This document shows, piece after piece, positions 68 through 56,993 of a stretch of DNA of 64,000 nt. Every line of letters starts with the position of its first letter. Within the stretch, counting starts at the first letter, position 1. Source of the stretch: Trypanosoma brucei (taxonomy: Eukaryota). The notes below the pieces were generated by a model. It saw only the letters and a list, made by a program, of their open reading frames with translations, ran no database searches and was not told where the DNA came from. Location of the stretch: the NCBI GenBank assembly GCA_000002445.1, contig CM000207.1:1376001-1440000 (forward strand), given 5' to 3'. A program made the position numbers and the translations under genes.

Positions 68-1198
68 TTAAAAGCATTTGCTGTGTACGATGCTGGGTCC
101 CGACTCGTCGTATTCACTCTTCGTTATCCACATCGACTGGAAGGTTGTTAGTGATGAGAGGATGGAACCGCCAATCCACACGCTATACTTGCGCTCCGGT
201 GGTGCCACAACCTTAGGCTTGATCGATGACGGTGCAAGATTGCTGATCTCCTTTCCAAGTCGCTCAGGTAGGTTCTTGAACATCGTGGTACCGCCAGAGA
301 GCACAATGTTGCCGTAGAGATCACGACGCACGTCAATGTCACACTTGTTGATGGACTGAAAGGTCATCTCATGGAACCCAGGAGCCTCATCAAGTCCAAT
401 GAGAGCAGGCTTAAACAATGCCTCGGGACAGCGGAAACGCTGGTTCCCCACCTGCATAACATTGCCATCAGGAAGTTCGAACGGTTCTTCGCTGACAGAT
501 TTAGCACTGTTCGTCATCTCTTCGTCGAAGTCCAGTGCAACGTAGCATAATTGTTCCTTAATATTCCGCACGATTTCCTTCTCAGCGGAGGTGGTGAACG
601 TCATACCAGTCTCCATTAGGATCTTCATGAGATATTCCGTCAGGTCACGACCAGCCATGTCCACACGACGGATGGCATGAGGAAGAGAATAACCCTCATA
701 TATGGGCACAGTATGTGTCACACCGTCACCAGCGTCGAGAACAATGCCAGTGGTACGGCCAGAAGAATACAGTGACAACACCGCCTGTATTCCGACGTAC
801 ATGGCAGGTACACCAAATGTTTCAAACATAATCTGCGTCATTTTCTCACGGTTTTGCTTGGGGTTCATAGGCGCCTCAGTCAGTAGCACGTTGTGTGACT
901 CAGGGTTGACGCGCAACTCGTTATAGAAGGTATGGTGCCAAACCTTTTCCATGTCATCCCAATTGGTCACAATTCCGTGCTCAATGGGGTACTTCAGCGC
1001 AAGCACACCACGTTTCGCCTGAGCTTCATCACCAACAAACAGTTTCTTGTTTGCACTTCCCATCATCGCTTGCTCATTTTTGGGGCGGCCGACGATGGAT
1101 GGAAATACGTGGCGAGGAGCATCATCTCCGGAGAAACCCGACTTCACCATACCCGAGCCATTGTCACAAACTATAGCAGTTTGTTCCTCGTCCGACAT
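68..1198 (-). CDS. ACT: Actin (376 aa). The ORF-track start at 1234 is a TTG; the true ATG ([16 protein letters not shown]…) is at 1196-1198.
   Basis: Full-length actin over 376 aa; the sequence matches T. brucei actin nearly residue for residue (…[34 protein letters not shown]… ending …[10 protein letters not shown]). I confirmed the ATG by reverse-complementing 1196-1198 (cat). Only one copy lies in the window; the second tandem copy known in T. brucei would sit beyond the low-coordinate edge. Confidence 0.95.
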
Positions 1199-4100
1199 TA
1201 TTTTATGGCAGTAACGAGACCTTACGTAAAGCAAAACTAAATAAGAGCGGAGACTGCAATGCAGAGTAAAAAAAAAACATGAATTTCAGAAGACTTTGTT
1301 TTATAAATGTAACAATTTTTTGTACTGTTATGTCAAAATCTTTTTTCAATTACGGATATTTACGCAGTTATTAACTTGCAGAATGGCGGTAGTTCATAGG
1401 ATGTCATTTGATGGTAACAGCGTTTATTCTTCGCATTCGTACACCTTGATTATTTTGTAGACATCCCTCTTGGCTCATATGTTCGATATCTTATCTTTTG
1501 TTGAACCCAGTGTCGTAGAAACCAGTCGTTTTTTCGTCATCTTAATGTTGGTTAACGTTCCGTGGTAACTTCGTTGTCCCTGGGGGAAAGCGGCCGACAA
1601 TGTATATGTTCTCGTGGCTAGCGTCAACTTTGTGGTCGTTTTTTGTTATTACATCCCCGACGACAAGTGAAAAAGATGGGTGGCGTACGCGGCCGTTTGT
1701 CCTAGTTTAACAGAATGTACCGCCTATTTCACACTTATGGGTATTGACTGAACGCCGCATGCAAGATGTTTTAAACACCTCCAGGTTGAAGCAGTGTTAA
1801 CCAACCACGCCTAATGTTTTGAATGTCACGACCTTTGAGCATTTGGATACTGCAACCAAATAATCAAGCCGCATCATTATGATGTGACTGAGGAAAAAAG
1901 AAACAAAAATGTCCCGCTAAGGTTCCACATGCTTCACCAAAAGCGACCTTAAGCCAACAAGTGGAAGATGACAACAGCATCCTCAGGTTGCGAGAACACA
2001 TTGTTTCGAACACCATGTGTGTTTTCATAGTGTGTAAGTACAGCCCCTTGTCTGATTACCACGAAAACACAAGTGAGTTAGAAGCCTTACCATCTGGTGA
2101 AAGGTCAAACTAACTCATATACGTTCCTCCTTGTCGTAAAACAAAAACAACCAAATCGATTACTAAACAAATAGCAGAACAATCTACAAACAGAGGGAGA
2201 CACTCGGCGGACAATAGTAAATGAATAGTAGTTAGTTGAGAAAAGCATGTGTCCACCTTCCAACACGAAACAGTAGCACACAAGTTGTTGTTACATGAAA
2301 AAAGTGAAGCGAAAATATACGATGCCTCTTTTCCTGCATACAAAACCTGGGTTCCGGATAACCTGGCAGTACAAAAAAAAAAAAGTCGAACTACATCGTG
2401 CGTCAAGCTATCGCTGCAACAAACCCTCCCATATGATATTCAAAACCCATAAGATATATATTTCACCTACATACCGTGGGGAGAAAAAAACCAAATTAAA
2501 CGGGGTCAGGAAGATGCAGGTGGAATACCCGAGTAAATGCGAAGCACCCGGGCACGGTCGTCCCATATTCGAGACACAGTTTTAAAAACAAAAAAGCTGA
2601 TTAGATAGATCACTTTAACAAGGGGAGAATAGCCCATAACCCATTCACACCAGTCGTTCACGTGTAAAAAAAAAAAGGAATAGGTGTGAGAGTTTCTCTC
2701 TTACAAAAAATAAAAATTAAAAAGCAGGGACCCCGATGAGTGCTCTCTGTCCAGTAAGAGTGCCCCAACAAAAAGGTTACATCACAGAAACACAAAGTCC
2801 AGGGAGAAACAGGGTTAACGAGTGCATAGTGTAATACTTTTAAAACATAAAATTCGAGACAAATTGTGATTAATGCATGTTTCAAAAAATAATTTTATTT
2901 CCACCAGCATAAAGAGGAAAGTTCCCCATTCACCTCATGTTACAGCAGCGATAACGCTAGGAAACGCACTGGTCAGTTGATTTCCGTTCCGCTGAGTTTG
3001 ATAAGCTCAGGTGTGAATTAAAAACGTACTCACGACAATGCCGATGGTAAATCGGGTGAATAAAACATCTATGTATGCTCGAAAAACACATGACATTATA
3101 AATACGTCTCCATAGTGCCTACGGAGTCAAATCGAAGGAGGCTGTTGACGGAAATACACTACAAATCGTCAGTTTGAATCATTGCAGCACACCAATGAGA
3201 TCTGAAAGATGCAAAAAAAAAGTATATGTGTTTCTATGGTACTATCCAAAATAATAACTGCAGAACGACGTCTCAACAAAAGAAATCATAATTATAATAA
3301 TGTTAATTTAATAATGACAACATTAACTTCAGTATACTATATTTCATCATGAAGATTTTAAGGGTAGAAATCGGGTACAACACGCATCCGGAAATGTTGG
3401 AATCAACCCTTTATTCCCTCACCTGCATCGTTGTACAAGTTAATACTGAATGCGACATGAAAGTACGTCACCACAGACAACGTCACCTCAAAACGGTACA
3501 GACACTCCCAGCCGGTTGGGTTAAACAACGCCATGCTGAAACTTTTACCCAGAGCAAGTCTACATGCAACATGCTGTTAGGGCACAAAAGTGCATACAAC
3601 GACGTTACAATGATTTAGGTCGATTTTTAAAAATATGTTGCAAATGGTAAAGATGGAACGAGCAGAAACCTTGTCCAATCATCCGAACACTGTTATACAC
3701 CAGAAGTTTTAACAAATAAAAAAAATAACGATCACCCACTTTGCGACAATTATCCCTTAAACCCATATACTTACGGGACAATAGAAGACACATTTCTCTG
3801 AAGTAATCCGAAGTGACTCATCCGCATCATTAGGTCCCCATAAAAACTACAATGGTGGAACCTTCAGAAGTGAACGGGATCATCCACATATGCAAAGCGG
3901 ACGAGTTTAGTCATTCAATTAATCATCGGCATGTACTGTGGACGTCCGACGACCTATTTCCTGTGTTCCGGTGAACATTCAAGTGCAACACGATGCCCAC
4001 TAGAAGATCCCTCAAAATCTTCTTTGCATGGAAAACCCAGAAAAATACTTAACCATCAGAACGAGCGGTGAATAGCGACATCACACTAATTACTCATCTA

Positions 4101-4555
4101 CCACTGGGCAAGGGCGGGTAGAATATTTTTTAAAAAAAATGAATGTGATGGAGCCTGTGCATTACCTTGATGCAGTAAATGGCACGCCCAAGCACTTGCA
4201 CCGAAACGTTCACCACCGAAGAAGGGTATTATACGCGTAACAAATGTGGGCGTCTTTTCGGTGTATCCACCAAAACCTTCTAGCAGTGTACTGTATTCCC
4301 AAAGGGGGAGCAAAGAGAAATGAAGACCGAACTCATCATAGGGAAGCGGATCAATATTGATACATCAAAGTTGGGCTGTTGGTTAAAAAAAAAATGGAAG
4401 TTCACCGACACAAAAGAAATCTACAAAGAGCCACACCACCATCAAAAAAAAAAAGAAGGAAAGTGGTGACATGGGTTTATTTAAGTTTTCTTTACATCAC
4501 CACTCGACAACAACGCGAACTCAAAAAAATGGTGCGAAAGAGGCAGCCAAAAAGT

Positions 4556-4834
4556 TCACCAACGATCGCTCTTGCAGACGGCATCAAGTGGAGCAGATGC
4601 TTCCTTTCCTTCCCGAGTTTTACGCCACCATAGTGTGGCATACGAGGGACCCGGGACACCGATGGGTTTGAATGGCATATTTCCAACCATCCCACTCACA
4701 CTCATGAATCGGAACAGAGTCAACTGGTCGCAGCGAGGGCAGTGGTCATTGCGAAGTGTAAGCTTCCTACAATAGCTGTTCGATACCGCAAATTCGTACA
4801 TGTAACCACAACGAAAGCACGAAAACAACGCCAT
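4556..4834 (-). CDS. Putative small zinc-ribbon-like protein (92 aa), speculative
   Basis: ATG at 4832-4834. Motifs CFRCGYMYEF … x17 … CPRCD (CxxC-x17-CxxC). On the minus strand a polypyrimidine tract (ttctccccgtctggactttctcacttgcgtttgtgttg…ccttcgcctttcaacttctctgttAG) ends in an AG about 12 nt before the ATG, the classic trans-splice acceptor arrangement. I recognised no homolog. It lies in an otherwise gene-free region. Confidence 0.2.
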   Translation of the reverse strand: MALFSCFRCGYMYEFAVSNSYCRKLTLRNDHCPRCDQLTLFRFMSVSGMVGNMPFKPIGVPGPSYATLWWRKTREGKEASAPLDAVCKSDRW

Positions 4835-4950
4835 CCTGCCGATATCCTAACAGAGAAGTTGAAAGGCGAAGGGGAATTTTTTGCTTTCAACACAAACGCA
4901 AGTGAGAAAGTCCAGACGGGGAGAAAGGGGACATACTTCTAAGAAAATGC
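4835..4950 (-). promoter_or_regulatory. Polypyrimidine tract plus AG dinucleotide (candidate spliced-leader acceptor) upstream of small ORF 4556-4834
   Basis: The plus strand is purine-rich (gaaaggcgaaggggaattttttgctttcaacacaaacgcaagtgagaaagtccagacggggagaaagggg), so the minus strand is a long C/T tract followed by AG. Confidence 0.3.
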
Positions 4951-6650
4951 GTGCTTCAGCATCGCCTAGGTCATGCAGGCGCACGCACACATATACGTAG
5001 GCACCGGCAGCGCAAGGGTTTCAGCATAGCCTCCAAGCGACAGAACCAACCAAATACCAACCAACAAACGGTACAAAAGTCACCCATCACCCACCAAAGG
5101 AGCCACACCAACGGTGGCAACTTCTTTCCTCCCTCTCCAGCCCCCCCCCCCTTTAAAAAAAGGGGGGCGCTCATCCTCGCACGATTGATAAAAGGAGGTA
5201 CGTCACACGCCCCCCGAGTGCCCCCGGCCCGACAAATACCCTTCAAAGATAAGACAAAAGACCAGCGGCGAAGTGGGGGGCCACACACACACACCGCAGC
5301 CGAAGCAACCCACCAGATTTTGTGGTGGCCCTCCCGTTCAAAGCGACCTGCACCAGCGCCTTATCATGCTCGACACCCAAACCCGCCGACAGGCGCCGAA
5401 GGACCGACACCGTAACTATGATCCGCATTCCACACCTGAGCCGAACCCCAGTAAAAACAAACAAAACACACGAAAATACGGCCCGCCCACGAGCGGAGGT
5501 GGGTGTGGACGGCCCCGCGGCAACAGATACAACCAGCATCCCAAAAACGCTCACAACAGGCACCGGCTCCGCCCACCACTCACGACGAGCCGGTCCGCAC
5601 ATGAGGTTAGTGGAAGAAAAAAAAACAACGGTCCAGCACAACGCCACTAGCACCAACACCAGGCAGGGCCAAACCTTTGACGAAGCAGTGCTCCACGGGC
5701 ATGGGACCCACGCGAGCCTCCGGTTTCTCGCAAAAGTAAGAGGTCATAAACATTGGCCCCACAGCGGGGCCCCAGCCGCGGTGCCAAAGCAGCGACAGGC
5801 CAATCCCCACACACGCGGAGTCCCCACCGCCACTGGCGTACGAACCTTTAATTGTTGCGAATGCGGCGGCCAGCCGCCCCCATGCACCCCGGGCCCCGAG
5901 CATCAGAGCAGCCGGATGGCCGCCCAGCATCGGAGAGAAGGCCGGTGGCAACACCACCCACTGTCCCTGGGGATGGGGGAGGGACAATGAACGAAATACC
6001 CATTCAACACTTTCCTCAACGCGTGGAGAACGGTGACGGGACCAAATGCAAAAAAAAAAAAGAAGAGCGCACACTAACCACATGATGCGGGCGCACGGCG
6101 TCGGCGGAACCGCCTGCACGGGGTGGGGGCATAGCGGCAGGGAATGGCGTAGGCGTCGCGAAAGATCTAAGGGCAATAAGATGTGTTGAAGTCAAACCTG
6201 CCGAACGCCTGTTCAATCGCGAAGACCAGACAACATTCGTGTCAACATATTTCCACAAATCAACTATCCTTAACCAATAACGGCTGAGGACGTTGAATTC
6301 GACGGAGGGCCGCTCATTGTGGTGTGGACATGAGTTCCCGCAGCCGACCGTGGAACCGAGCCACCGCTTCTGGAAAAGCAGTCGAATGCGCGGTTCGATG
6401 GCGCCCGAGAGGGGAAAAGAAGATCACCGGAGTGCAGCTCTTCCCTCGCATTACTTAGACACTGTATGAAGTAGGAGGGGCTGTGGTGGAGGCGGAAGAA
6501 AGGTAGCAGCAGCGGATTCACCGGCAACACACACAGGGCAAACGTCAGCGGAGGCCGCGACGGGCCCATTCTGGTCACAACCTCCAGCGCATCATTCACA
6601 CGTAGCAAGACTGACCCGAACAGCTTGGCAATAAAGCGGCGTGCAAGAAT
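4950..6650 (-). promoter_or_regulatory. GC-rich island, CA-rich on the plus strand and GT-rich on the transcribed minus strand; candidate GT-rich Pol II initiation element or non-coding island
   Basis: Long runs of caaccaaataccaaccaacaaacgg…, ccacacacacacaccgcagccgaagcaaccc…, aaaacaaacaaaacacacg…. The many overlapping ORFs on both strands (5322..5990, 5607..6176, 5243..5659) lack stop codons because of GC content and have no protein-like composition. Confidence 0.3.
5149..5169. repeat. Homopolymer hairpin C11-TTT-A7-G6
   Basis: ccccccccccc ttt aaaaaaa gggggg read directly. The C-run and G-run are complementary (stem up to 6 bp, A/T-rich loop). Further C6/C5 tracts at 5200-5230 give G-tracts on the minus strand. 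Confidence 0.8.
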
Positions 6651-9600
6651 CGCAGAAAAGATACGGGTGGTTCCTAAGGCGGAGCGGGTGGGAGAAGCTA
6701 AACCATTTTATAATCCACACTAAGAATCAAGGCACAAAAAAAGCATCTCCCGTGGGGGAAGAGCGTGTTGACGACATTTTCCCGGCCAAAGGGCCCAACC
6801 TTATCGACCCAACAGCAGAAAAACTTTCTAGCACCTCGAAGAAGCAACAACGGTGGGCAAGGTGAACTCAGCGGTGAAAGAAACGACCCCAAGGCAACAC
6901 GAATACAAAACAGAAAAACTGGAAGAGGCCGAGGCAGGAATGTGAGACCTGGCTGCCGCGGCACTTGCACCACGGACGTTGAGCACATTAGTTGTAGGCG
7001 TCAAAGAGCAGAAGCCAACAAAACGGCGGTAAGCAGATGCTGTTGCGGAAATGTACTAAAAGAGGCTCAGAAAGATACGGCGAGCTCCGAGGGTGGAATT
7101 ATCAGGGGTAACAAACTATAAGTCTAAGTTGTTTGATTACGGAGGAGCGGAGGTTGACACAGAGTGACGTATACGCTGGAACTGCACCTAGAGAAGATTG
7201 CACACACGGAAAGAAATTGTAGAACCTTGTTTGGAAAGAGAGGAAATGCTTCGTGAGGTTTTATAATCACCGCGTGGAACACGGCGGAATACCCGGGCGG
7301 GGGTGAGAAGGGCGGTAAAACATCACTCTCGGGAGACAGAAAAAGCTTGCAAAAGAGGCGGCGGCAGCCCGAGAAGCGGCCCTTAGAAGTGTTTTCTCCA
7401 AGTCGATGAGGGGTTGATTGGCAGTACACTGAAAGGTCACTTTGATCGGTTGCTTACATCAAAGAAACCGCCGTTTATGCCAAAGCACCAAGCAGTAGAC
7501 ACCAAGTTTTTGACGTTTGGTGAAACAAGGTGGAGAAATGGGGAGACAGCAACTGCTTTCATGGATCGTGCAAGAGCGACCGGCTCAATGGATCGTCGGG
7601 GGATCACTCACTGTGGTTTTAAATCGCTGCGATGCGCATCTCCGCTTAGCGAGACGGATAGGACAGTTGCCGCATAACCGAAAATCCAAAATGAAGATGA
7701 GCAACGCGTAGCCAGGAGATTTCCTCGACCTTAGGGGTGTGGCGGGAATTTGTCCTCGAACCACTTCTGGTCGCTGTGATAATGGAAGCATAATAAGAGG
7801 CACTGATCGGAGCACAGGGATTAAGCATACCTTCCTTGCAAACGGTCCAATCGTCATACGCGCCGGCAGAGGTCTAAAAAAATTTTGAGCAAACGCCACG
7901 GAGGGAGCCTCGGTTGTGTGCCAATGAACGGTCGAAAAGACCTTTCGTGGAAATTTCGGCTGAAGAGGAATGCACAACGTCTCGGTGCTGCCGCGCAGCT
8001 GAATGGACTTTTGAGTGCCTGAGATGCTGGTAAACAAGCCGAATGCACCTAATATATCGAGCCTTACTTCACAACTGGTTAAGATCGCCGTGAAGCGTGT
8101 TCAAAAAATTTTAAGCCACCAAATCGAAACCTCCCAAGCCGTTTACAGATTCCTCAGTGTGGTAGGGTCGTGGGTACGACATTCCGTGGCTGTTTTCATC
8201 TCGCGTTGGCCCCATCGCACGGCAGGGACGGGAAAGAACTACGGTGTTTGGATGTCTTTGAGCGTGGTTGGGGAAACCCCACTGCTGCAGAGCGCTACTC
8301 GAGTTACATCATAGCAAGCGCGTTGCGAAAGGCGCGGAGAGGGGAGGCCCTCTTTTTAAGTTCCCCCGCTTATTGCCGCAACTGTGACGCGCAACGTTGC
8401 ATTTTGTGCTAATGTGGAGGCTGTGGGACAGGAAAATGCGACGTTGCGAAGCCGCACCCTGTCGTATGCGAAGCCACCTGGTTTTCCGAGTTGACAGCCG
8501 CTCGCCACGAACGGAGGGCCCTCTTTATTGTAAAACCCAAACAAGGAAGCAGAGTTCAAGACGTGAAAATGGGGGAACACCGGACGGTCGCGTCGGGAGG
8601 CCGCTGTGAGCGACAAATACGCTCTCCAGCGGAAACATCGACCTCGTCATCAACCGACAGTGCGGCGCCTTTGGTTTGCTTTGTTTCACAAGGCGTGCAT
8701 GCGCACATCGCAGCCGCCACGCAGCCTTTTTCTTCGCACAGGTTTTGTTGGTGCGGAATGAGCGCCCAAAAAGGTTGGTGCACGTAGTAATGGCCAAACT
8801 TAACCGAGGTCTACGCAGTTCGAAGGCGCCGCACATATATGCATATGCGTTGCGCCATGTTTCCCTAAAGTTGTCCAGTGGGTGAGCGTTTTTCTTTTTT
8901 TTTTCTTCACGTATGATGGCCGCGCCTGACTACCGCTGGCTTTGGATTTGGGGAACCGGCGCGCACTAACGAAATGCTGATCGCCGTTGCGTTCGGTGTT
9001 CTCGTTGACTTGTGGGATGTTTACGAACGCGAACTCTGTGGAAAGTTGAAATAATTAAGACGAAAATGCCTTATGGCAGCGCTGCGGATGATCAGGGAGC
9101 TACAGAAATGGAGGAAGAGGAGAATGTGATCGGGAATTCTTTCTTTCCCTTTAGTGACGTACACGGATGGTGGTTGGGAAATTGTTGGGATACGCTTTAG
9201 GAACGCCTCTGGCGGTGTCCGAAGATTTTTTTTTTCGTGCTGGACGAGGCGGGGGATAACTACACCAATAACTTTTTTTTTTTAAAGGAAACAGTTCGGA
9301 AACGGAAGTATCTCTATAACTCAATATCAGGGTACGACAAAAATCTGAACGCGCGGGGTAAATATAAGGGGGTGCGGTCTTCCTCTCAACTCATCACTTC
9401 CCCCTGTTTGTTTTACTGCTGCCTTCACTCCATGACAACGTCGGTATCATAGGGCAAAAATGCAAACATGTACTCTCCCGTATGGATGGGCGATCATGGA
9501 GCACATCACCGCACGCGATTGATTATTTTCCACCACCAAAACGAAAAAAAAGGGGGAAAAAAGACATGCGTAGCGCACAGTGTGTGTGAACACAGCGTTG

Positions 9601-11054
9601 AGTTCCAAAAGTTCCGCTTCACCACCTCATTGCGTTTTCTTTTCTCCCCCTTTCCTCAAACCCTCCAGATGCACGAAGATATCGGAATGAAAAGTAAGAG
9701 AGGGTAGAGACGTCCGATATGTGGCCCTGCAAACGCTAAATGCGACACGGCCCACAAAATGTGATAATATTCAGTTTTGTCACAATATACTGAGATCTCT
9801 CATACATTGGTCCTTTACCGCTCGAACCAATGGTGTGTGCCTTCATTTCCACTTTAGGCTTCACTGCCGTTATTCCGGTGATGATCAGAAGTTTGTATGA
9901 CTCCAGCACTGCGGATAATTCGCATTAGATATTTTACAGTAATTAGTGAGGCATTGATGACCATGTTGCCTTTAAGAACTGTACAGCATATTAGCAACAA
10001 TGACCTTATTCGAAAGATGGAGGGTATACCGCCCGTTCCTCTTCCCCTTCTCCATCCTTGTTGTGGGCAGAAAATAGCCTTGTGACCTGCTTCCAACAAG
10101 ACCTTTCATCTCCTACTGACTGATAAGGTGTTAACCGTAATGCACCGCTGCCAATATCAAAAATAAAATTAAAAAAAACCGCCATAGCCCTGTTCAATCC
10201 ACCTTTGCGCTATGGAAGGAAATTTGTCATCATCGTGCACGTTAAAACTTTTCCTCCCGATCCATAGCACCTGCATTTGCGAAGCCAGTACCATTGGGAA
10301 TTTAAAATAGTTTCATCACCCCTCCCCGCCTCGGTAAAACACCCAAACGGACCACGCATTGGCGCGTGAGGCGGACTCCAACAAGTCACAGACGTACACG
10401 CACATACATACATGAGAGTAAATGAGGCGCAAACCTACTTCTGTCTATCTTCACTTCCTTGGTTTTTAGCTTCAATAACCATGCGTGCTCCAGTCAATCG
10501 ATGCAGCAGTGACATTTTCTTGAATCAGCCTCGTATCACTGAATTGTGCAGCAAATGTACGCGCGAAACGCTGGGGATACCTCCGCATAAAGACATAATC
10601 GTCTCGTCCATGGGATCGCTGCGTGAGACTTTTTCGTGCGTGGGCAAGAGCTCTGCGGCAGAGCAAAGGCACGGAGGTGCAAATGCGATGTTTAACTGCT
10701 TTCATATTTATCAATGTCCTTCACATCTAAGCCATATCACCAAACTTTATCCTAACTGCTAAATGTATACGTGTGAACTCAAATAAACGATGATGTGGGA
10801 ACAAAACGGCAAATCTCCATTGGACCGTATTACATCAGGAGAAAGTTACCAAGTGAGTGTCGTAGAGCATTTCGAAACACTATTAGTGCTATTATTACAA
10901 AAACCTCACGTATTGTGTTGATGACGTGGTCATAATGACCAGTATTCTTGTTCCCCTTTCCCCCCTCCCCAATCCACCACACCGCTTTCTTTCTTTTCTT
11001 TACGTAGGGGTGAATCGCAACAGCCAAGTCCCGGTGAAACACCGATCGAGCTAT

Positions 11055-12338
11055 TCATTTCCGTTTCTTATTTTCCTCCTTAATGGCATCGAGCCGTTGG
11101 GCGAGTGGTGGATGAGAGTAGTGCAGCGCAGCGAAGAGCGGATCGGGTGTAAGCAAGTTCTTATTCTCCTTGTGTATAACCATCAGTCCTCTTATAAGCG
11201 GTTCACCATACCCAGAACTAACGGCGTACCGATCCGCCTGGAACTCAAATTGACGAGTCACGAGTGACACAAGATAACCCAGGAGTGTGTTAATGGGCTC
11301 CAAAAACACTTGGCTGAACAGCTCGAAACCAATGAGCGGATTGGCATCGCTGAACCCAAACTGCTTGTACAAGTCAGTGTTGAAAATTACGGCCTTTGCG
11401 CCGTATGATATACACCACGTTTGAGCAACCATAAAACCGAAGAAGAATTTGTCGTGGGAGTTCTTCCAGTGGCCGAGCTCGTGGCAAAGAACGGCAAGCA
11501 GCGCGTCGTGATCATCCTTCGTCTGCTCAACGATCGTATCATACAAAACAATGTGCTTCGACCAAAAACCATAGAAGTACGCGTTGCTGTGACCCGAGCG
11601 CCGCGAACCATCAACTTCGTATAGTTTCTTCAAAGGAAACTTGTGCTTTTCAGCGAGTGCATATATCTTCTTCCCCAACTCACCGTCCTTCGGTATCGGC
11701 GTGTACGTGTTGAATAGGGGCTGGATGAAAGTGGGGTAAACGAAGGTGAAAATGGTGATCAGGCCCGTCGCACCGAGGAAAAAGTAAAATGGGAAATCCT
11801 CGCCGAACAGTTCCACCACCTTGAGGATGAGCCCACTGGTCAGAACGTGCAACAGAGTCAGGCGAAGCAGAAAATACTTGGCAACGTCCAGAAAGAATTC
11901 CTTGCGCGTCATTTTGTTGAACCCATGTTTCTCCTCGATCACAAATGTTGAGTAGTATTCAAAAGGAAGGCTTATGAGTGTCGTTAGCACATCCGTTGCG
12001 ACGGCGTAAACGTAGCAATGTGAAAAGGAGCCCGTAGCCCCTGGTAATAGTTGGCCAAGGGATCCGTACAACTTGGCGGGCAGTTTTGCCAGCAGGGAGA
12101 CGTTGCTTATGACAATGTCCTTTACGTGCAACAAGATTGAAAAGCTGAGTTTCTCCCTTTCGTACTCCTGAGTGGTACGGAACTCCTTCTCTTCCACGAC
12201 GCCGACAAGGTGTTCAGGCATCTTTGCATTCGCGTATGCTTTACGCTGCCGGCGTTGAAGGTAAAGGTCCCACAGCGCCAGCGCATTGAGGCCGATCAGC
12301 GCCGTACCGTAAAATGTCATCCCACCCCACGCAACCAT
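11055..12338 (-). CDS. STE24: CAAX prenyl protease 1 (STE24/ZMPSTE24, M48 zinc metalloprotease), 427 aa
   Basis: ATG confirmed at 12336-12338. HExxH zincin motif LCHELGHW; multi-TM N-terminal half; length and layout typical of Ste24. The C-terminal …HYSHPPLAQRLDAI… is the conserved M48 tail. Confidence 0.88.
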   Translation of the reverse strand: MVAWGGMTFYGTALIGLNALALWDLYLQRRQRKAYANAKMPEHLVGVVEEKEFRTTQEYEREKLSFSILLHVKDIVISNVSLLAKLPAKLYGSLGQLLPGATGSFSHCYVYAVATDVLTTLISLPFEYYSTFVIEEKHGFNKMTRKEFFLDVAKYFLLRLTLLHVLTSGLILKVVELFGEDFPFYFFLGATGLITIFTFVYPTFIQPLFNTYTPIPKDGELGKKIYALAEKHKFPLKKLYEVDGSRRSGHSNAYFYGFWSKHIVLYDTIVEQTKDDHDALLAVLCHELGHWKNSHDKFFFGFMVAQTWCISYGAKAVIFNTDLYKQFGFSDANPLIGFELFSQVFLEPINTLLGYLVSLVTRQFEFQADRYAVSSGYGEPLIRGLMVIHKENKNLLTPDPLFAALHYSHPPLAQRLDAIKEENKKRK

Positions 12339-53137: not shown

Positions 53138-55544
53138 ATCCTTTTTTTTTTCTTTCCCTTCCTTCACTCTTTTTTATTTAACCTAATTTTCCCTCTCTTT
53201 TTTTCTTTTTCCTGCTGTGTGCTTTTGCGAGTTACGTATAGCTAAACTTGTACCTTTATCTTTAACAACAACAAAAACAAACTCCTTTCCTTTTAAGCAG
53301 AGATATACTTTGATTTCTTTCCCACCCTTTTTATTACTCGACTACTTATGGTTTGAGAAAGTGTTCTCACTAAAATAAAATAAAACAACAACACCAATAA
53401 CGACGTAAGGTTGAAGACAAATAAGGCAAATAAACTTGCTAACCTTGCCTATTCAGTTATCAGTTACCGCAATCCAACAGAGGTTTTGGCTGTAAAGAAA
53501 GAAATTGCGGCCAACGGGGAAAAAAGAGGAAGAAGAAGAAACAAAAAAAAAAGGACATAACAGAGCAGAATAGTACAACGCAATGCAAAAGATCGATCAA
53601 TGAAAAACATACTTAAAATACAAGTGGAACGCTACAGTTATCGAGTTATTTTATACGAGAGGCGAGGAATTATCGAAAAGAAAAAAAACAAGAAACCTCT
53701 CCCTCTTTTTTTCCATCACATTTCGTTTCCTCCTTTCTCTCTCTTTCTCTCTTTCTTCCTCTTAAAGCGAAAGTGATTAAGAGGGTGCAAAAGTGTAAAC
53801 AACCCACTACGCACTATCGTATTTGAGAGAGAAAAAAAAAAGGAAAAATACAAATGCAGAATTATATATTTGTAAATTGAAATAAATAAACAATTATATA
53901 AATATAATAATAATAATTGTCATTATTATCATTATTACTGTTATTTTTTTTTTTGTAAAGAGTAGCATAACGTACTAATTCATTTTCTCCCTTCATCGAA
54001 GGGTCGCACATTTCAGTGAATGTACGTGACCTTTAATTAAAAACAACAACAACAACAACACACAAACACGCAAACACAAAAAACAAAACAAAACACACAT
54101 ACACAAATAAATATAAATGGGCACATGCATTTTTATGTAAACCTCATATGCTCTTCATGAACATCAGCCGGTTTGGGCGCACACCACAAACTTCGCTCAC
54201 AGTTGAGCGCATTCCACCGGTACGGTAACATTTTGTGCGTACGCATACGAAAGGGAAGGACAAAAGAGATGAAGGGAAGAGTGTTGTCGGAGGGAAAAGG
54301 AAAGAAAGAAAGAAAGAAAAAAAAATGGAACTTATAAAATTTCTTGTATCACCGCAACACGTAGCAGGAAGATAATGCCTCCGTACGCTCAGAAGTGAAA
54401 ACTCGTTATGATAAAAACACGCATGAAAATAAACAGGTTTCGGGAGAAAGGTGTGGGAAATAAAAGAAAAAAACAACAACAAAGACAACACTCCACGTTC
54501 GTTTCATACTCACATGTTGTGGGGGGGGCGGAGGGGTTTAAACCCCTTTATTTCCTATTAGGATCATACATCAGTAATTTAAAAAAAAAAGAACAAAAAA
54601 AGAAGGGGAGGAGGCGAGCTATTATGCATTAAAAGCGAACAAAAACAAATATGCCGCTGGAAATGCGTGTAAGATAACCTTTCTATTCTTCCCTCTGACG
54701 ACTCTGAATAGGAAGAAGGTGATGGGTGAGGGTGCTCACGGGCGTAGCTTTTTCCTCAGTGGTGTTAAATCATAAAAGTAAATTGAAAAAACTTTTTAAA
54801 AAAAGGACCACGAACACGAAGGAGAGAGGAGGGGGGGGGGAAACAAAGTAAAAAAGACGGGGGTGTCCCATCCGATACAACTCAACCCTACTGCACGGGA
54901 ATGCAGACGCATATAGATACACGTGCATCCATGAGTGCAGTTACAAAACAAGAAATAAATAAAATAGATGACAACAAAAGGGAAAAATAAACAAAAAATT
55001 ATGCCTTAACCGGGAAAAATGGTACCGAGGGTAAATTTTTTTTTTAAAAGGACAAAAGACAAAAGCATGGCGCAGCCGATAGATTTCCAGAAACACGGAA
55101 AAGAAAGAAGGGAAGCGCGTTGAACCGAAGGTCGCTGAAAGGAAAACAAAAATAAAGAGAAAATAAGCAAAGTTAAGGAACGCCGCCCGAGGAGTGAAAA
55201 AGTAGCCTAGGCCACTTTAATGCGTCGGACCTTTTCGCTCATGCTTCTCTCATGTACATAACCGAGTGATCACGTAATGAAACCCCTTCCGTGTGTAGAT
55301 TTGACAAAAATTTACATAAGTGTAATCAGTTGCTCTTCCCTCCCGTGTAGCACGTGTACTATCGTTGTTAGAAGAACAAGACGAAATAATAACCAAAAAA
55401 AAGATGAAAAAGGAATATAGAGAAAGGAAAGAAAGATGGGGAGATAAGGTGACGCACCGTCATGGCGGCACCACTGTACCTGAAAACTCCCCGCTCTTTT
55501 TTTTTTAACTATAACTATCACCATCACTATCAAAAGCATTATTC

Positions 55545-56993
55545 CTATCTCGTTCCTGGCCTAGTCTGCTGTCCTGGGGGCAAAATGGTGAGCACATATT
55601 CTACAAATGAGGCCTCTGCAGTGGAGGCCATTGACTCCGCCAAGTGTGCCGCCTTGCTAGACTCACCCGCCGACGGCGCAGCGCAGCGAGTTTTCACCCA
55701 CTCCTCAAAGTTTGCTGTTGTAAAGATGTGACGCTTCCGGTAGTCTGATGGCCACTCTTGTATCACTTTGATAAGATCCTTCTGAAGTCTGCCCACAGCT
55801 ACACGTGAGAGATTTGCGGCCTCTACACAAAGTTTAAATTCTTTAACAGCATTGATAATGCGTTCACGCTGGCGTTCAAGGGCAATTTCATTGGCTCGCC
55901 TTCCCCAAACGGAACACCACATGGCGTCATCGTTCCTCGGATTTTTCCGGTGTTTCGCGTGCCGGCACTTCGCTGAGTCTTGTTGTTCAAACACATCAGC
56001 AAGTGCAGCCATAGGGGGTTTAAGCGACGAACGCTTCTCGTGCCTTATTACCATATTGCGACACACATCTCTAGTGCAAAGTGATTCATCTAGCTGGAAC
56101 TGTTGCTTGTAATTGACGTAGTCGAATCGATGACGCCACTTTTTAGGTAGCAGGGGACCTTGTTCCATATAGTATTTCCTCCCGTGCTTCCTGCTGTCAG
56201 TGGTGTCTGGCGAGGTTGTTATGTTGTAAAGCAGATCCCAACTCCTAACTGGGATCTTACGCAGCCGGTCTAAAAGGGTTAAGCGTGACCCAGGCTTGCC
56301 CTTAACTGTGGGAGGCAGTGCTGCTTTCCCGGGGGTGGAGTGATTACCGTCGCTGCTGCTGTTCTTTAGATCCTCTTCAACTCTCTTTACAGCCCTCGTC
56401 ACCGTTAAGTTTGCATCCAACGGGAAGCGACCCCTGTCCAAGGCGCTAACCAGTGAGTGACTTGTGTGAAAGGAATGAGTGCCGCTATCCACGCACCCCT
56501 GCGCAGACTCCTCCTCCGTCCACACTTCAAGGGCCTGCTTGTACAGACTGTTTGTTGTTGGGGAACTCGGCGTCTCACTGGAGGTATCGGTATCATCTTC
56601 CCCTTTCCTCACTGCATCCCCCGACTCAGGTGAGAGTTTTGATATGTATTGAATTTTTGCTATTCCTTCCTCAATTCCTCTTTCCAGCAGCTCTTCGAAA
56701 GGACTTTTCTCTCGATCCCTTTCCCTTTCCTTTTCCATTAGATCATCTTTGTCCGGGCGCAGCATGCCGCAACGGGGTGCAAAAACGGGAGCTGCACGTT
56801 TCATCAGTGACCGCATCGCGCTACTTTCATCTACAGCAAGTTTACGTAGTTTGATACCTTCACCACTGCTTCGGGGCTCCCTTCGTACACCGTGCTGCTT
56901 GTTCATGTTCTTGCTCACCTCTTTAGCCGTCATACTCGCAAAGTAGAGCGACACCACAGGTTTTGCTACCTCCGTACAGTGTGCCGTTGCCAT
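55545..56993 (-). CDS. Conserved hypothetical protein (482 aa)
   Basis: ATG at 56991-56993. A long ORF co-oriented with its neighbours. It has a charged, Ser-rich middle and no recognised domain. Confidence 0.6.
   Translation of the reverse strand: MATAHCTEVAKPVVSLYFASMTAKEVSKNMNKQHGVRREPRSSGEGIKLRKLAVDESSAMRSLMKRAAPVFAPRCGMLRPDKDDLMEKERERDREKSPFEELLERGIEEGIAKIQYISKLSPESGDAVRKGEDDTDTSSETPSSPTTNSLYKQALEVWTEEESAQGCVDSGTHSFHTSHSLVSALDRGRFPLDANLTVTRAVKRVEEDLKNSSSDGNHSTPGKAALPPTVKGKPGSRLTLLDRLRKIPVRSWDLLYNITTSPDTTDSRKHGRKYYMEQGPLLPKKWRHRFDYVNYKQQFQLDESLCTRDVCRNMVIRHEKRSSLKPPMAALADVFEQQDSAKCRHAKHRKNPRNDDAMWCSVWGRRANEIALERQRERIINAVKEFKLCVEAANLSRVAVGRLQKDLIKVIQEWPSDYRKRHIFTTANFEEWVKTRCAAPSAGESSKAAHLAESMASTAEASFVEYVLTILPPGQQTRPGTR

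Follow-up and report, generated by a model that had tools for sequence, protein, structure and literature searches.

Evidence for an internal, head-to-tail boundary of two Pol II transcription units between STE24 and actin on Trypanosoma brucei chromosome 9, with a tentative account of its origin

The window, as we call the whole 64-kb stretch of T. brucei chromosome 9 analyzed here (its coordinates are those of Tb927_09_v4 minus 1,376,000), carries all its gene-like open reading frames (ORFs) of at least 180 aa on the minus strand. Two of these neighbors, STE24 (CAAX prenyl protease 1, Tb09.211.0680; minus strand, 11055..12338), recognized by its Peptidase_M48 domains, and actin B (Tb09.211.0630, 376 aa; minus strand, 68..1198), recognized by its Actin Pfam domain and exactly matched in T. 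brucei genomes, lie 9.86 kb apart, counted from 11055, where STE24 has its stop codon. Actin itself starts with the ATG at 1198, the start at 1234 being that of a TTG-extended ORF, and the coordinate mapping was checked against the published poly(A) sites and untranslated region (UTR) lengths of actin and STE24, which land on both stop codons. Spacing elsewhere in the window is about 0.16 to 2.4 kb, the next-largest outside the STE24-actin stretch being 53167-55545. The initial annotation had picked out an unusually long gene-poor gap in a co-directional array, and at 9.86 kb against at most 2.4 kb elsewhere in the window this observation holds.

The same annotation had seen no protein-like ORF in the gap apart from one candidate of 92 aa. 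A six-frame Pfam search of 1235-11054, in which stops were replaced by X, agrees with the first part, as it returned zero matches at an E value of 1 or below, whereas the candidate is a gene in its own right. The 92-aa ORF (minus strand, 4556..4834) is identical in 92 of 92 residues to the mitoribosomal large-subunit protein mL100 in the T. brucei mitoribosome structure PDB 6HIV, chain Bh (E = 9e-65), is matched also in 6HIX, 6YXY and 7AOI, and has a zinc-ribbon-like CxxC...CxxC arrangement. It is kept in other trypanosomes at 71 to 86% identity, with same-length homologues at 71 to 77%, and its DNA is 74.5% identical to that of T. melophagium, where the remainder of the gap does not align. 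Judged by this sequence identity, the ORF is a real protein-coding gene, one that was missed by ORF-length filters, so the stretch is no true desert. It divides the interval into 6.2 kb (STE24 to mL100) and 3.4 kb (mL100 to actin), which are still the two largest spacings in the window. Other ORFs in the gap reach 222 aa and lie over one another on the two strands of a GC-rich block (5322-5990 on the plus strand and 5607-6176 on the minus strand), and these are not intact across T. brucei subspecies, as a 270-aa gene of T. b. gambiense maps to ORFs that are split in the window. In the 2010 annotation the ORFs here, Tb09.211.0640 and Tb09.211.0650, at 5243-5602 and 5607-6083, are classed as "hypothetical unlikely," and no transcript was detected from them (Kolev et al. 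2010, Table S2).

The published transcript map places a series of processed minus-strand RNAs between the two flanking genes. The main poly(A) site of STE24 lies at about 10897 (PAS 1386897; Kolev et al. 2010, Table S13), giving a 3' UTR of about 158 nt (10897..11054), and in two STE24-carrying Logan contigs the match to the window ends at 10972 and 11009. Downstream of STE24 comes Tb9.NT.102 (6800..10777), a processed transcript of 3,977 nt present at 0.51 RNA per cell (Table S7), which has no recognizable coding content and no Pfam or Rfam match. An interval with no mapped processed transcript (4847..6799) then separates it from Tb9.NT.56 (4403..4846), an mRNA with its trans-splice acceptor at 4846 and its poly(A) site at 4403 (Tables S7, S9 and S13), which encodes mL100 and with which the processed mRNAs of the downstream unit begin. 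Three processed noncoding RNAs follow toward actin, namely Tb9.NT.55 (971 nt, 3360..4331, 2.11 RNA per cell), Tb9.NT.54 (984 nt, 2287..3271, 1.09 RNA per cell) and Tb9.NT.53 (868 nt, 1334..2202, 1.37 RNA per cell), all from Table S7. All five published transcript 5' ends in the gap lie immediately after an AG, against a background AG frequency of 4.2%, which again bears out the coordinate mapping; that of Tb9.NT.102 (10777) has a pyrimidine-rich tract upstream, and at Tb9.NT.56 the AG at 4848-4847 likewise follows such a tract.

In the catalogue of transcription units compiled from 5'-triphosphate RNA sequencing, a minus-strand unit runs from Tb09.211.1400 to Tb09.211.0680 and the next, likewise on the minus strand and classed as "Internal," runs from Tb09.211.0630 to Tb09.211.0040, the boundary being fixed only to the STE24-actin interval at the resolution of this table (Kolev et al. 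2010, Table S14). By gene identity the upstream unit closes with STE24 (Tb09.211.0680) as its last ORF, and the annotated ORFs of the downstream unit open with actin (Tb09.211.0630). Reads from 5'-triphosphate RNA were enriched at every site with modified and variant histones, internal ones included (Kolev et al. 2010), and the sites are said to coincide with the histone-marked sites of Siegel et al. 2009. The boundary is therefore already known, being listed among the internal Pol II start sites of that published map.

The transcript-free interval at 4847-6799 also holds the most G+T-rich sense-strand DNA and the most GC-rich DNA of the 64 kb. In 500-bp windows, sense-strand G+T content peaks at 0.672, which is 3.8 SD above the mean of 0.521 (SD 0.040), and the top seven values of the whole window all fall within 4801-5900. 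The surrounding block (minus strand, 4801..6100) has a GC content of 0.57 to 0.63, is G+T-rich on the sense strand, includes a run of 11 G residues at 5141-5151, and is on composition a candidate dispersed Pol II promoter. A G+T-rich sense strand is a reported signature of T. brucei Pol II start regions, and GT-rich sequence has been linked to initiation and H2A.Z deposition in this species (Wedel et al. 2017; Clayton 2019). By its content of k-mers from the synthetic GT promoter (Wedel et al. 2017), the block comes only second in the window and is outscored by a long 3' UTR at 53.2-55.5 kb, so the k-mer test is nonspecific. Taking composition, the transcript-free interval and synteny together, we consider 4847..6799 the most likely position of an internal transcription start region, and Tb9.NT.102 would then probably be the tail of the upstream unit, a zone in which transcription runs down.

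Could the polymerase simply read through, leaving the interval as a very long STE24 3' UTR or a passive spacer within one continuous unit? Every gene is co-directional, the sense strand at 1.7-4.5 kb is as T-rich as ordinary UTRs, and most of the gap is spanned by processed sense-strand RNAs, so the polymerase clearly crosses much of it. A giant STE24 3' UTR, which the initial annotation had named among the findings that would count against a boundary, is nevertheless excluded because the mapped poly(A) site ends the mRNA just 158 nt after the stop codon. Continuous transcription also sits poorly with a published map that splits the array here into two units by 5'-triphosphate RNA, with 2 kb lacking a processed transcript, upstream of which the RNA is two to six times rarer than those downstream, and with flanks that in three other trypanosomes close one unit and open another. 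We therefore regard run-through as very unlikely.

Some T. brucei unit starts adjoin tRNA, snRNA or rRNA genes, as reflected in the types distinguished by Kolev et al. 2010 (Table S14), and a boundary built around Pol III-transcribed genes or clustered small RNAs would have tRNA-associated unit boundaries as its precedent. Such genes, including a snoRNA cluster, had been suggested for this gap at the outset, and the searches did not bear this out: ARAGORN found no tRNA in the window, Rfam gave no match at gathering score in the window and none at an E value of 1 or below in the gap, and the class of the actin unit start in Table S14 is "Internal" rather than "next to tRNA." An organizing role for Pol III at this boundary appears exceedingly improbable.

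We conclude that the STE24-actin interval is, with high probability, a nondivergent (head-to-tail, or "internal") boundary between two Pol II polycistronic units of chromosome 9. Termination followed by reinitiation in the same direction had been proposed from the sequence alone; the same boundary stands in Table S14 and the sense-strand GT-rich block is present, meaning that a true transcription-unit boundary had been located without any transcript data. On the published map, STE24 mRNA is polyadenylated shortly past its stop codon and the polymerase runs on to yield the rare, 4-kb trans-spliced RNA of 10777-6800; 4847-6799 is then free of processed RNA, and the annotation opens a new unit ahead of actin. 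We propose that the upstream unit would terminate within roughly 5-7 kb in window coordinates, and that initiation may be dispersed over the GC-rich, sense-strand G+T-rich block at about 4.8-6.1 kb, a type of sequence that in T. brucei is reported to favor deposition of H2A.Z and initiation in one direction. The new unit yields first the mL100 mRNA (4846-4403), next the three short noncoding processed RNAs and then the actin genes.

Comparison with other trypanosomes, for which the initial annotation had called, supports a unit start at this place and suggests where it may have come from. In T. melophagium, STE24 is followed after about 8 kb by a convergent methyltransferase-like gene and LRRP1, then by a divergent switch, mL100, EMP70 and actin, and a GT- and GC-rich patch on the sense strand lies directly upstream of mL100, with the skew flipping further upstream. 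T. cruzi has LRRP1 divergent from mL100, which is the first gene after the strand switch, followed by an EMP70-like stretch and then actin, and in T. grayi the LRRP1 unit converges on STE24. STE24 ends its unit in both T. grayi and T. melophagium. We infer from this synteny that other trypanosomes have a short opposite-strand unit, made up of LRRP1 and the methyltransferase-like gene, between the STE24 end and the mL100 start, and that T. brucei is without it. Since T. brucei keeps both ends without the opposite-strand unit, the unit end and the unit start now stand head to tail.

In another reading, most of the gap would be what is left of an insertion or of genes in decay, such as a retroelement or pseudogenes, and its length would lack transcriptional meaning. 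The GC content of 0.49 to 0.63 and the many overlapping ORFs at 4.5-9 kb do resemble decayed coding DNA, EMP70 or a stretch like it occupies the mL100-actin interval in two relatives, and retroelement ORFs (RVT_1, RNase_H) occur downstream of STE24 in another Trypanosoma assembly. Against this, six-frame Pfam searches of the gap revealed no reverse transcriptase or endonuclease remnants of the kind left by ingi, RIME, DIRE or SLACS elements, no EMP70 and no other domain, and queries with EMP70, LRRP1 and methyltransferase-like proteins (tblastn, profile HMM and phmmer) yielded noise only. Tandem, dispersed or direct, long inverted and terminal repeats were sought in the gap, and a BLAST comparison was made with the other 54 kb of the window; both gave only short chance matches, with no terminal repeats, no repeats shared between the gap and its surroundings, and no repeat copies of retroelements in the window. 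Searches of the gap by tblastx and blastn against the STE24-downstream regions of T. melophagium, T. cruzi and the further Trypanosoma assembly, and against the divergent switch region of T. melophagium, returned zero matches. The decayed insertion entertained in the initial annotation thus finds no counterpart in the domains of the gap or the repeats of the window, and decay would in any case be compatible with boundary function, explaining at most the source of the DNA. As an account of the gap in its own right we judge it highly improbable.

Returning to the head-to-tail boundary, we suggest that it might be a relic left by the collapse of two strand switches, convergent at STE24 and divergent at mL100, with the small LRRP1 unit between them lost or relocated in the T. 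brucei lineage, leaving the terminator and the promoter in tandem. The ancestral order assumed here is the one seen in T. grayi and T. melophagium and, on the mL100 side, in T. cruzi. We hold this history to be plausible at somewhat less than an even chance. Outgroups that could tell loss from gain of the LRRP1 unit were sought in Leishmania major and Bodo saltans, and the STE24 neighbors are unrelated there. Cross-species synteny nonetheless points to a specific, testable origin for one such internal start and, if true and general, the collapse of switch regions would account for the emergence of internal Pol II start sites in trypanosomes.

The STE24-actin stretch is also the locus of the historical "actin promoter," the earliest claim of a Pol II promoter for a protein-coding gene in a trypanosome. 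Ben Amar and colleagues reportedly placed it, in 1991, about 4 kb upstream of the first T. brucei actin gene. Counted in the window, this distance would lead to about 5.2 kb, a position within the GT-rich block, which would make that block a candidate match to the cloned fragment. McAndrew and colleagues are said to have doubted, in 1998, that this cloned fragment behaves as a specific promoter when placed in a chromosomal context. Their work has since been cited in support of the idea that open chromatin could be enough (Wedel et al. 2017), and "the actin promoter" was described as the sole Pol II promoter of protein-coding genes identified by that time (Nilsson et al. 2010).

Set beside known systems, the boundary lies at the same place, ahead of the tandem actin genes, as the actin gene promoter of Ben Amar et al. 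(1991, Nucleic Acids Res 19:5857). It resembles the divergent strand-switch promoters of trypanosomatids in that the mL100 orthologue is the first gene after a divergent switch in T. cruzi and T. melophagium, but differs from them in that T. brucei is without the opposite-strand unit, the upstream neighbor being instead a co-directional unit that ends at STE24. The closest likeness is to the nondivergent Pol II start regions of T. brucei (Siegel et al. 2009; Kolev et al. 2010; Wedel et al. 2017), with which it shares a multi-kilobase, ORF-poor stretch that breaks a co-directional array, a listing as "Internal," a sense-strand GT-rich block and flanking processed RNAs of low abundance; it differs from these in nothing substantive, the STE24-actin locus being a catalogued member of that group.

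Gene-like ORFs in the 64-kb window all lie on the minus strand, with transcription running from high to low coordinates. Two neighbors in this array, STE24 (Tb09.211.0680, CAAX prenyl protease 1, minus strand, 11055-12338, with Peptidase_M48 domains) and actin (Tb09.211.0630, minus strand, 68-1198, whose true ATG is at 1198, the ORF reaching 1234 only through a TTG-initiated extension), are 9.86 kb apart, compared to about 0.16-2.4 kb for the other gene spacings. The initial annotation called this interval a gene desert with a single 92-aa candidate ORF, and interpreted it as a possible head-to-tail Pol II termination/re-initiation site. Our analysis supports that interpretation, and the gap is real and unusually long, but it is not empty: the 92-aa ORF (minus strand, 4556-4834) is a genuine gene, identical in 92/92 residues to mL100, a large-subunit protein in the T. 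brucei mitochondrial ribosome cryo-EM structures 6HIV, 6HIX, 6YXY, and 7AOI. Homologues in other trypanosomatids are exactly 92 aa long with 71-77% identity, and in a DNA alignment with T. melophagium mL100 is, besides actin, the sole part of the gap that aligns (74.5%, 267 nt), which together establish that the desert holds one real gene. Once it is counted, two gaps of 6.2 kb and 3.4 kb remain, and both still exceed every other gap in the window. For the ORF of NT.56, one of the published novel transcripts, homologues in L. major and T. cruzi had already been noted (Table S9; Kolev et al. 2010, PMC2936537). In Leishmania, the chain called mL100 (PDB 7AIH, chain BG) has 1347 residues, just the last ~76 of which match the T. 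brucei protein, suggesting a fused gene model or a genuine N-terminal extension.

Little else in the gap resembles a gene. Stop-masked translations of all six frames gave zero Pfam matches at E<=1, tandem, direct, and inverted repeats were without meaningful cases, and the gap bears no resemblance to the other 54 kb, so that an earlier suggestion of a decayed insertion found no support; tRNA or small-RNA genes, also proposed, were likewise not recovered, with no tRNA in the window and no Rfam family matched by either the whole window (gathering score) or the gap (E<=1). The longest gap ORFs, one of 222 aa on the plus strand and one of 189 aa on the minus, overlap inside a GC-rich block, where a 270-aa T. 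b. gambiense gene call corresponds to ORFs that are split in the window. Tb09.211.0640 and Tb09.211.0650 (within 4847-6799) and Tb09.211.0670 (7585-7857) are classed as "hypothetical unlikely", and no transcript was detected from any of them (Kolev et al. 2010, PMC2936537).

The supplementary tables of that study use Tb927_09_v4 coordinates. Its poly(A) site for actin B (1375842, 3' UTR of 226 nt) and for Tb09.211.0680 (1386897, 3' UTR of 158 nt) place the stop codons at 1376068 and 1387055 (Kolev et al. 2010, PMC2936537), which are 68 and 11055 in the window; window coordinates are therefore chromosome coordinates minus 1,376,000. As an independent check, the 5' ends of five of five novel transcripts fall directly after a minus-strand AG with a pyrimidine-rich tract upstream, against an AG background of just 4.2% of positions. 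The mapped 158-nt UTR excludes the view that the interval is simply a giant STE24 3' UTR. According to Table S7 (Kolev et al. 2010, PMC2936537), the gap yields five processed transcripts, all from the minus strand: NT.102 (10777-6800, 0.51 RNA per cell), the mL100 mRNA NT.56 (4846-4403, 3.01), NT.55 (4331-3360, 2.11), NT.54 (3271-2287, 1.09), and NT.53 (2202-1334, 1.37), leaving 2 kb (4847-6799) without any processed transcript. Table S14 closes one minus-strand unit, which begins at Tb09.211.1400, with Tb09.211.0680, and gives as separate a minus-strand unit of type "Internal" running from Tb09.211.0630 to Tb09.211.0040, so that a head-to-tail boundary falls precisely between STE24 and actin; every site earlier marked by modified and variant histones, internal sites included, showed enrichment of 5'-triphosphate reads, on both strands (Kolev et al. 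2010, PMC2936537).

Ranked by G+T on the sense (minus) strand, the top seven of all 500-bp windows in the 64 kb lie within 4801-5900, where G+T peaks at 0.672 (mean 0.521, SD 0.040); the block also tops the window for GC (0.57-0.63) and contains an 11-G run at 5141-5151. Nilsson et al. 2010 speak of "the actin promoter" as the sole Pol II promoter of protein-coding genes identified by then. Ben Amar and colleagues reportedly mapped, in 1991, an actin promoter some 4 kb ahead of the first actin gene, presumably at about 5.2 kb in the window and within this block, and McAndrew and colleagues are said to have later, in 1998, questioned its specificity. Wedel et al. 2017 cite McAndrew et al. 1998 as a source for the view that open chromatin could be enough. 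The block ranks second in the window for k-mer similarity to the synthetic promoter of Wedel et al. 2017, outscored by 53.2-55.5 kb, a region of long 3' UTR, and we therefore consider this comparison supportive but not specific. That region (53167-55545), at 2.4 kb second in length among the intergenic stretches, is low in GC (about 0.39), has the window's highest density of sense-strand k-mers in common with the synthetic GT-rich promoter, and includes the poly(A) site of Tb09.211.0940 at 53640 (3' UTR ~1.9 kb; Kolev Table S13); given that no unit boundary is listed there (Kolev et al. 2010), GT-richness alone does not mark a start site. At 8751-9250, sense-strand G+T is 0.418, the lowest among windows listed for the first 13 kb, with a G+T-rich plus strand (0.58); this may be due to chance, or the stretch may mirror the start region as half of one that was once bidirectional.

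The published maps show STE24 processed near its stop codon, then a long processed RNA of low abundance, then a 2-kb interval without processed RNA, and the mL100 mRNA as the first abundant processed product, with the 5'-triphosphate map declaring a new unit at the gap. We propose that the upstream unit would terminate within roughly 5-7 kb, and initiation would be dispersed and probably bidirectional in the GT-rich block at 4.8-6.1 kb.

Chromosome 9 of T. b. gambiense DAL972 and the 2018 assembly of T. brucei Lister 427 match the window at 97-98% identity, and gap length is equal in both. Within the candidate start region, ~85 gapped alignment columns at 5501-6000 separate both from the window, and T. 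b. gambiense differs by a further ~157 columns at 6501-7000; substitutions in the rest of the gap are 1-3%, with 9501-11000 unusually conserved (0.2-1%). Logan contig ERR7929159_2861 (L001, 1458-2683) carries an exact STE24 copy, matching the window until 10972, 83 nt past the stop codon, and beyond it an unrelated mitochondrial-carrier gene not present in the window; the contig is probably chimeric, assembled (from a transcriptome?) across a short repeat, though the junction could conceivably be a structural variant.

In T. melophagium, FMN_dh, Ank, Aa_trans, and STE24 are followed by about 8 kb without genes, then two opposite-strand genes, methyltransferase-like and LRRP1, a 2-kb divergent switch, mL100, EMP70, and four actin copies. 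The LRRP1 unit is likewise convergent on STE24 in T. grayi. In T. cruzi, LRRP1 and mL100 are divergent, about 1 kb apart, and followed by an unannotated EMP70-like stretch (L012 6827-8302, L013 6873-8300; a single tblastn segment of ~500 aa matches T. melophagium EMP70 at about 29-30% identity) and two actin genes, with STE24 elsewhere, again before a 5.4-kb gap. A further Trypanosoma assembly has, after STE24, small and retroelement ORFs or about 7 kb to the next gene call; in Trypanosoma assembly GCA_019425475.1 (L010 18251-21083), reverse transcriptase (RVT_1) and RNase H ORFs 7-10 kb downstream indicate that the end of the synteny block is a retroelement insertion site there, not in T. brucei. 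Across species, STE24 thus closes one conserved block and mL100 opens another. T. brucei keeps both ends without the opposite-strand unit between, and none of LRRP1, EMP70, and the methyltransferase-like gene has left a detectable trace in its gap, the 3.4 kb equivalent to the T. cruzi EMP70-like stretch carrying three short non-coding processed RNAs instead. T. melophagium mL100, too, has a GC-rich, sense-strand GT-rich patch immediately upstream, and the skew reverses at a greater distance; in T. cruzi the patch is only weakly present. Judging from gene order, the small opposite-strand unit may have been either lost by T. brucei or gained by the other lineage, a choice that L. major and Bodo saltans, with unrelated STE24 neighbors, do not decide.

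The sole modestly new idea to come from the STE24-actin gap is that the internal start site may be a collapsed convergent-plus-divergent switch pair. The feature itself is already known. For T. brucei in general, GT-rich elements on the coding strand were shown to cause both H2A.Z deposition and initiation by Pol II in one direction, and 57 non-divergent start regions have been counted (Wedel et al. 2017); a 2019 review by Clayton gives the same picture, re-initiation without a change of direction included.
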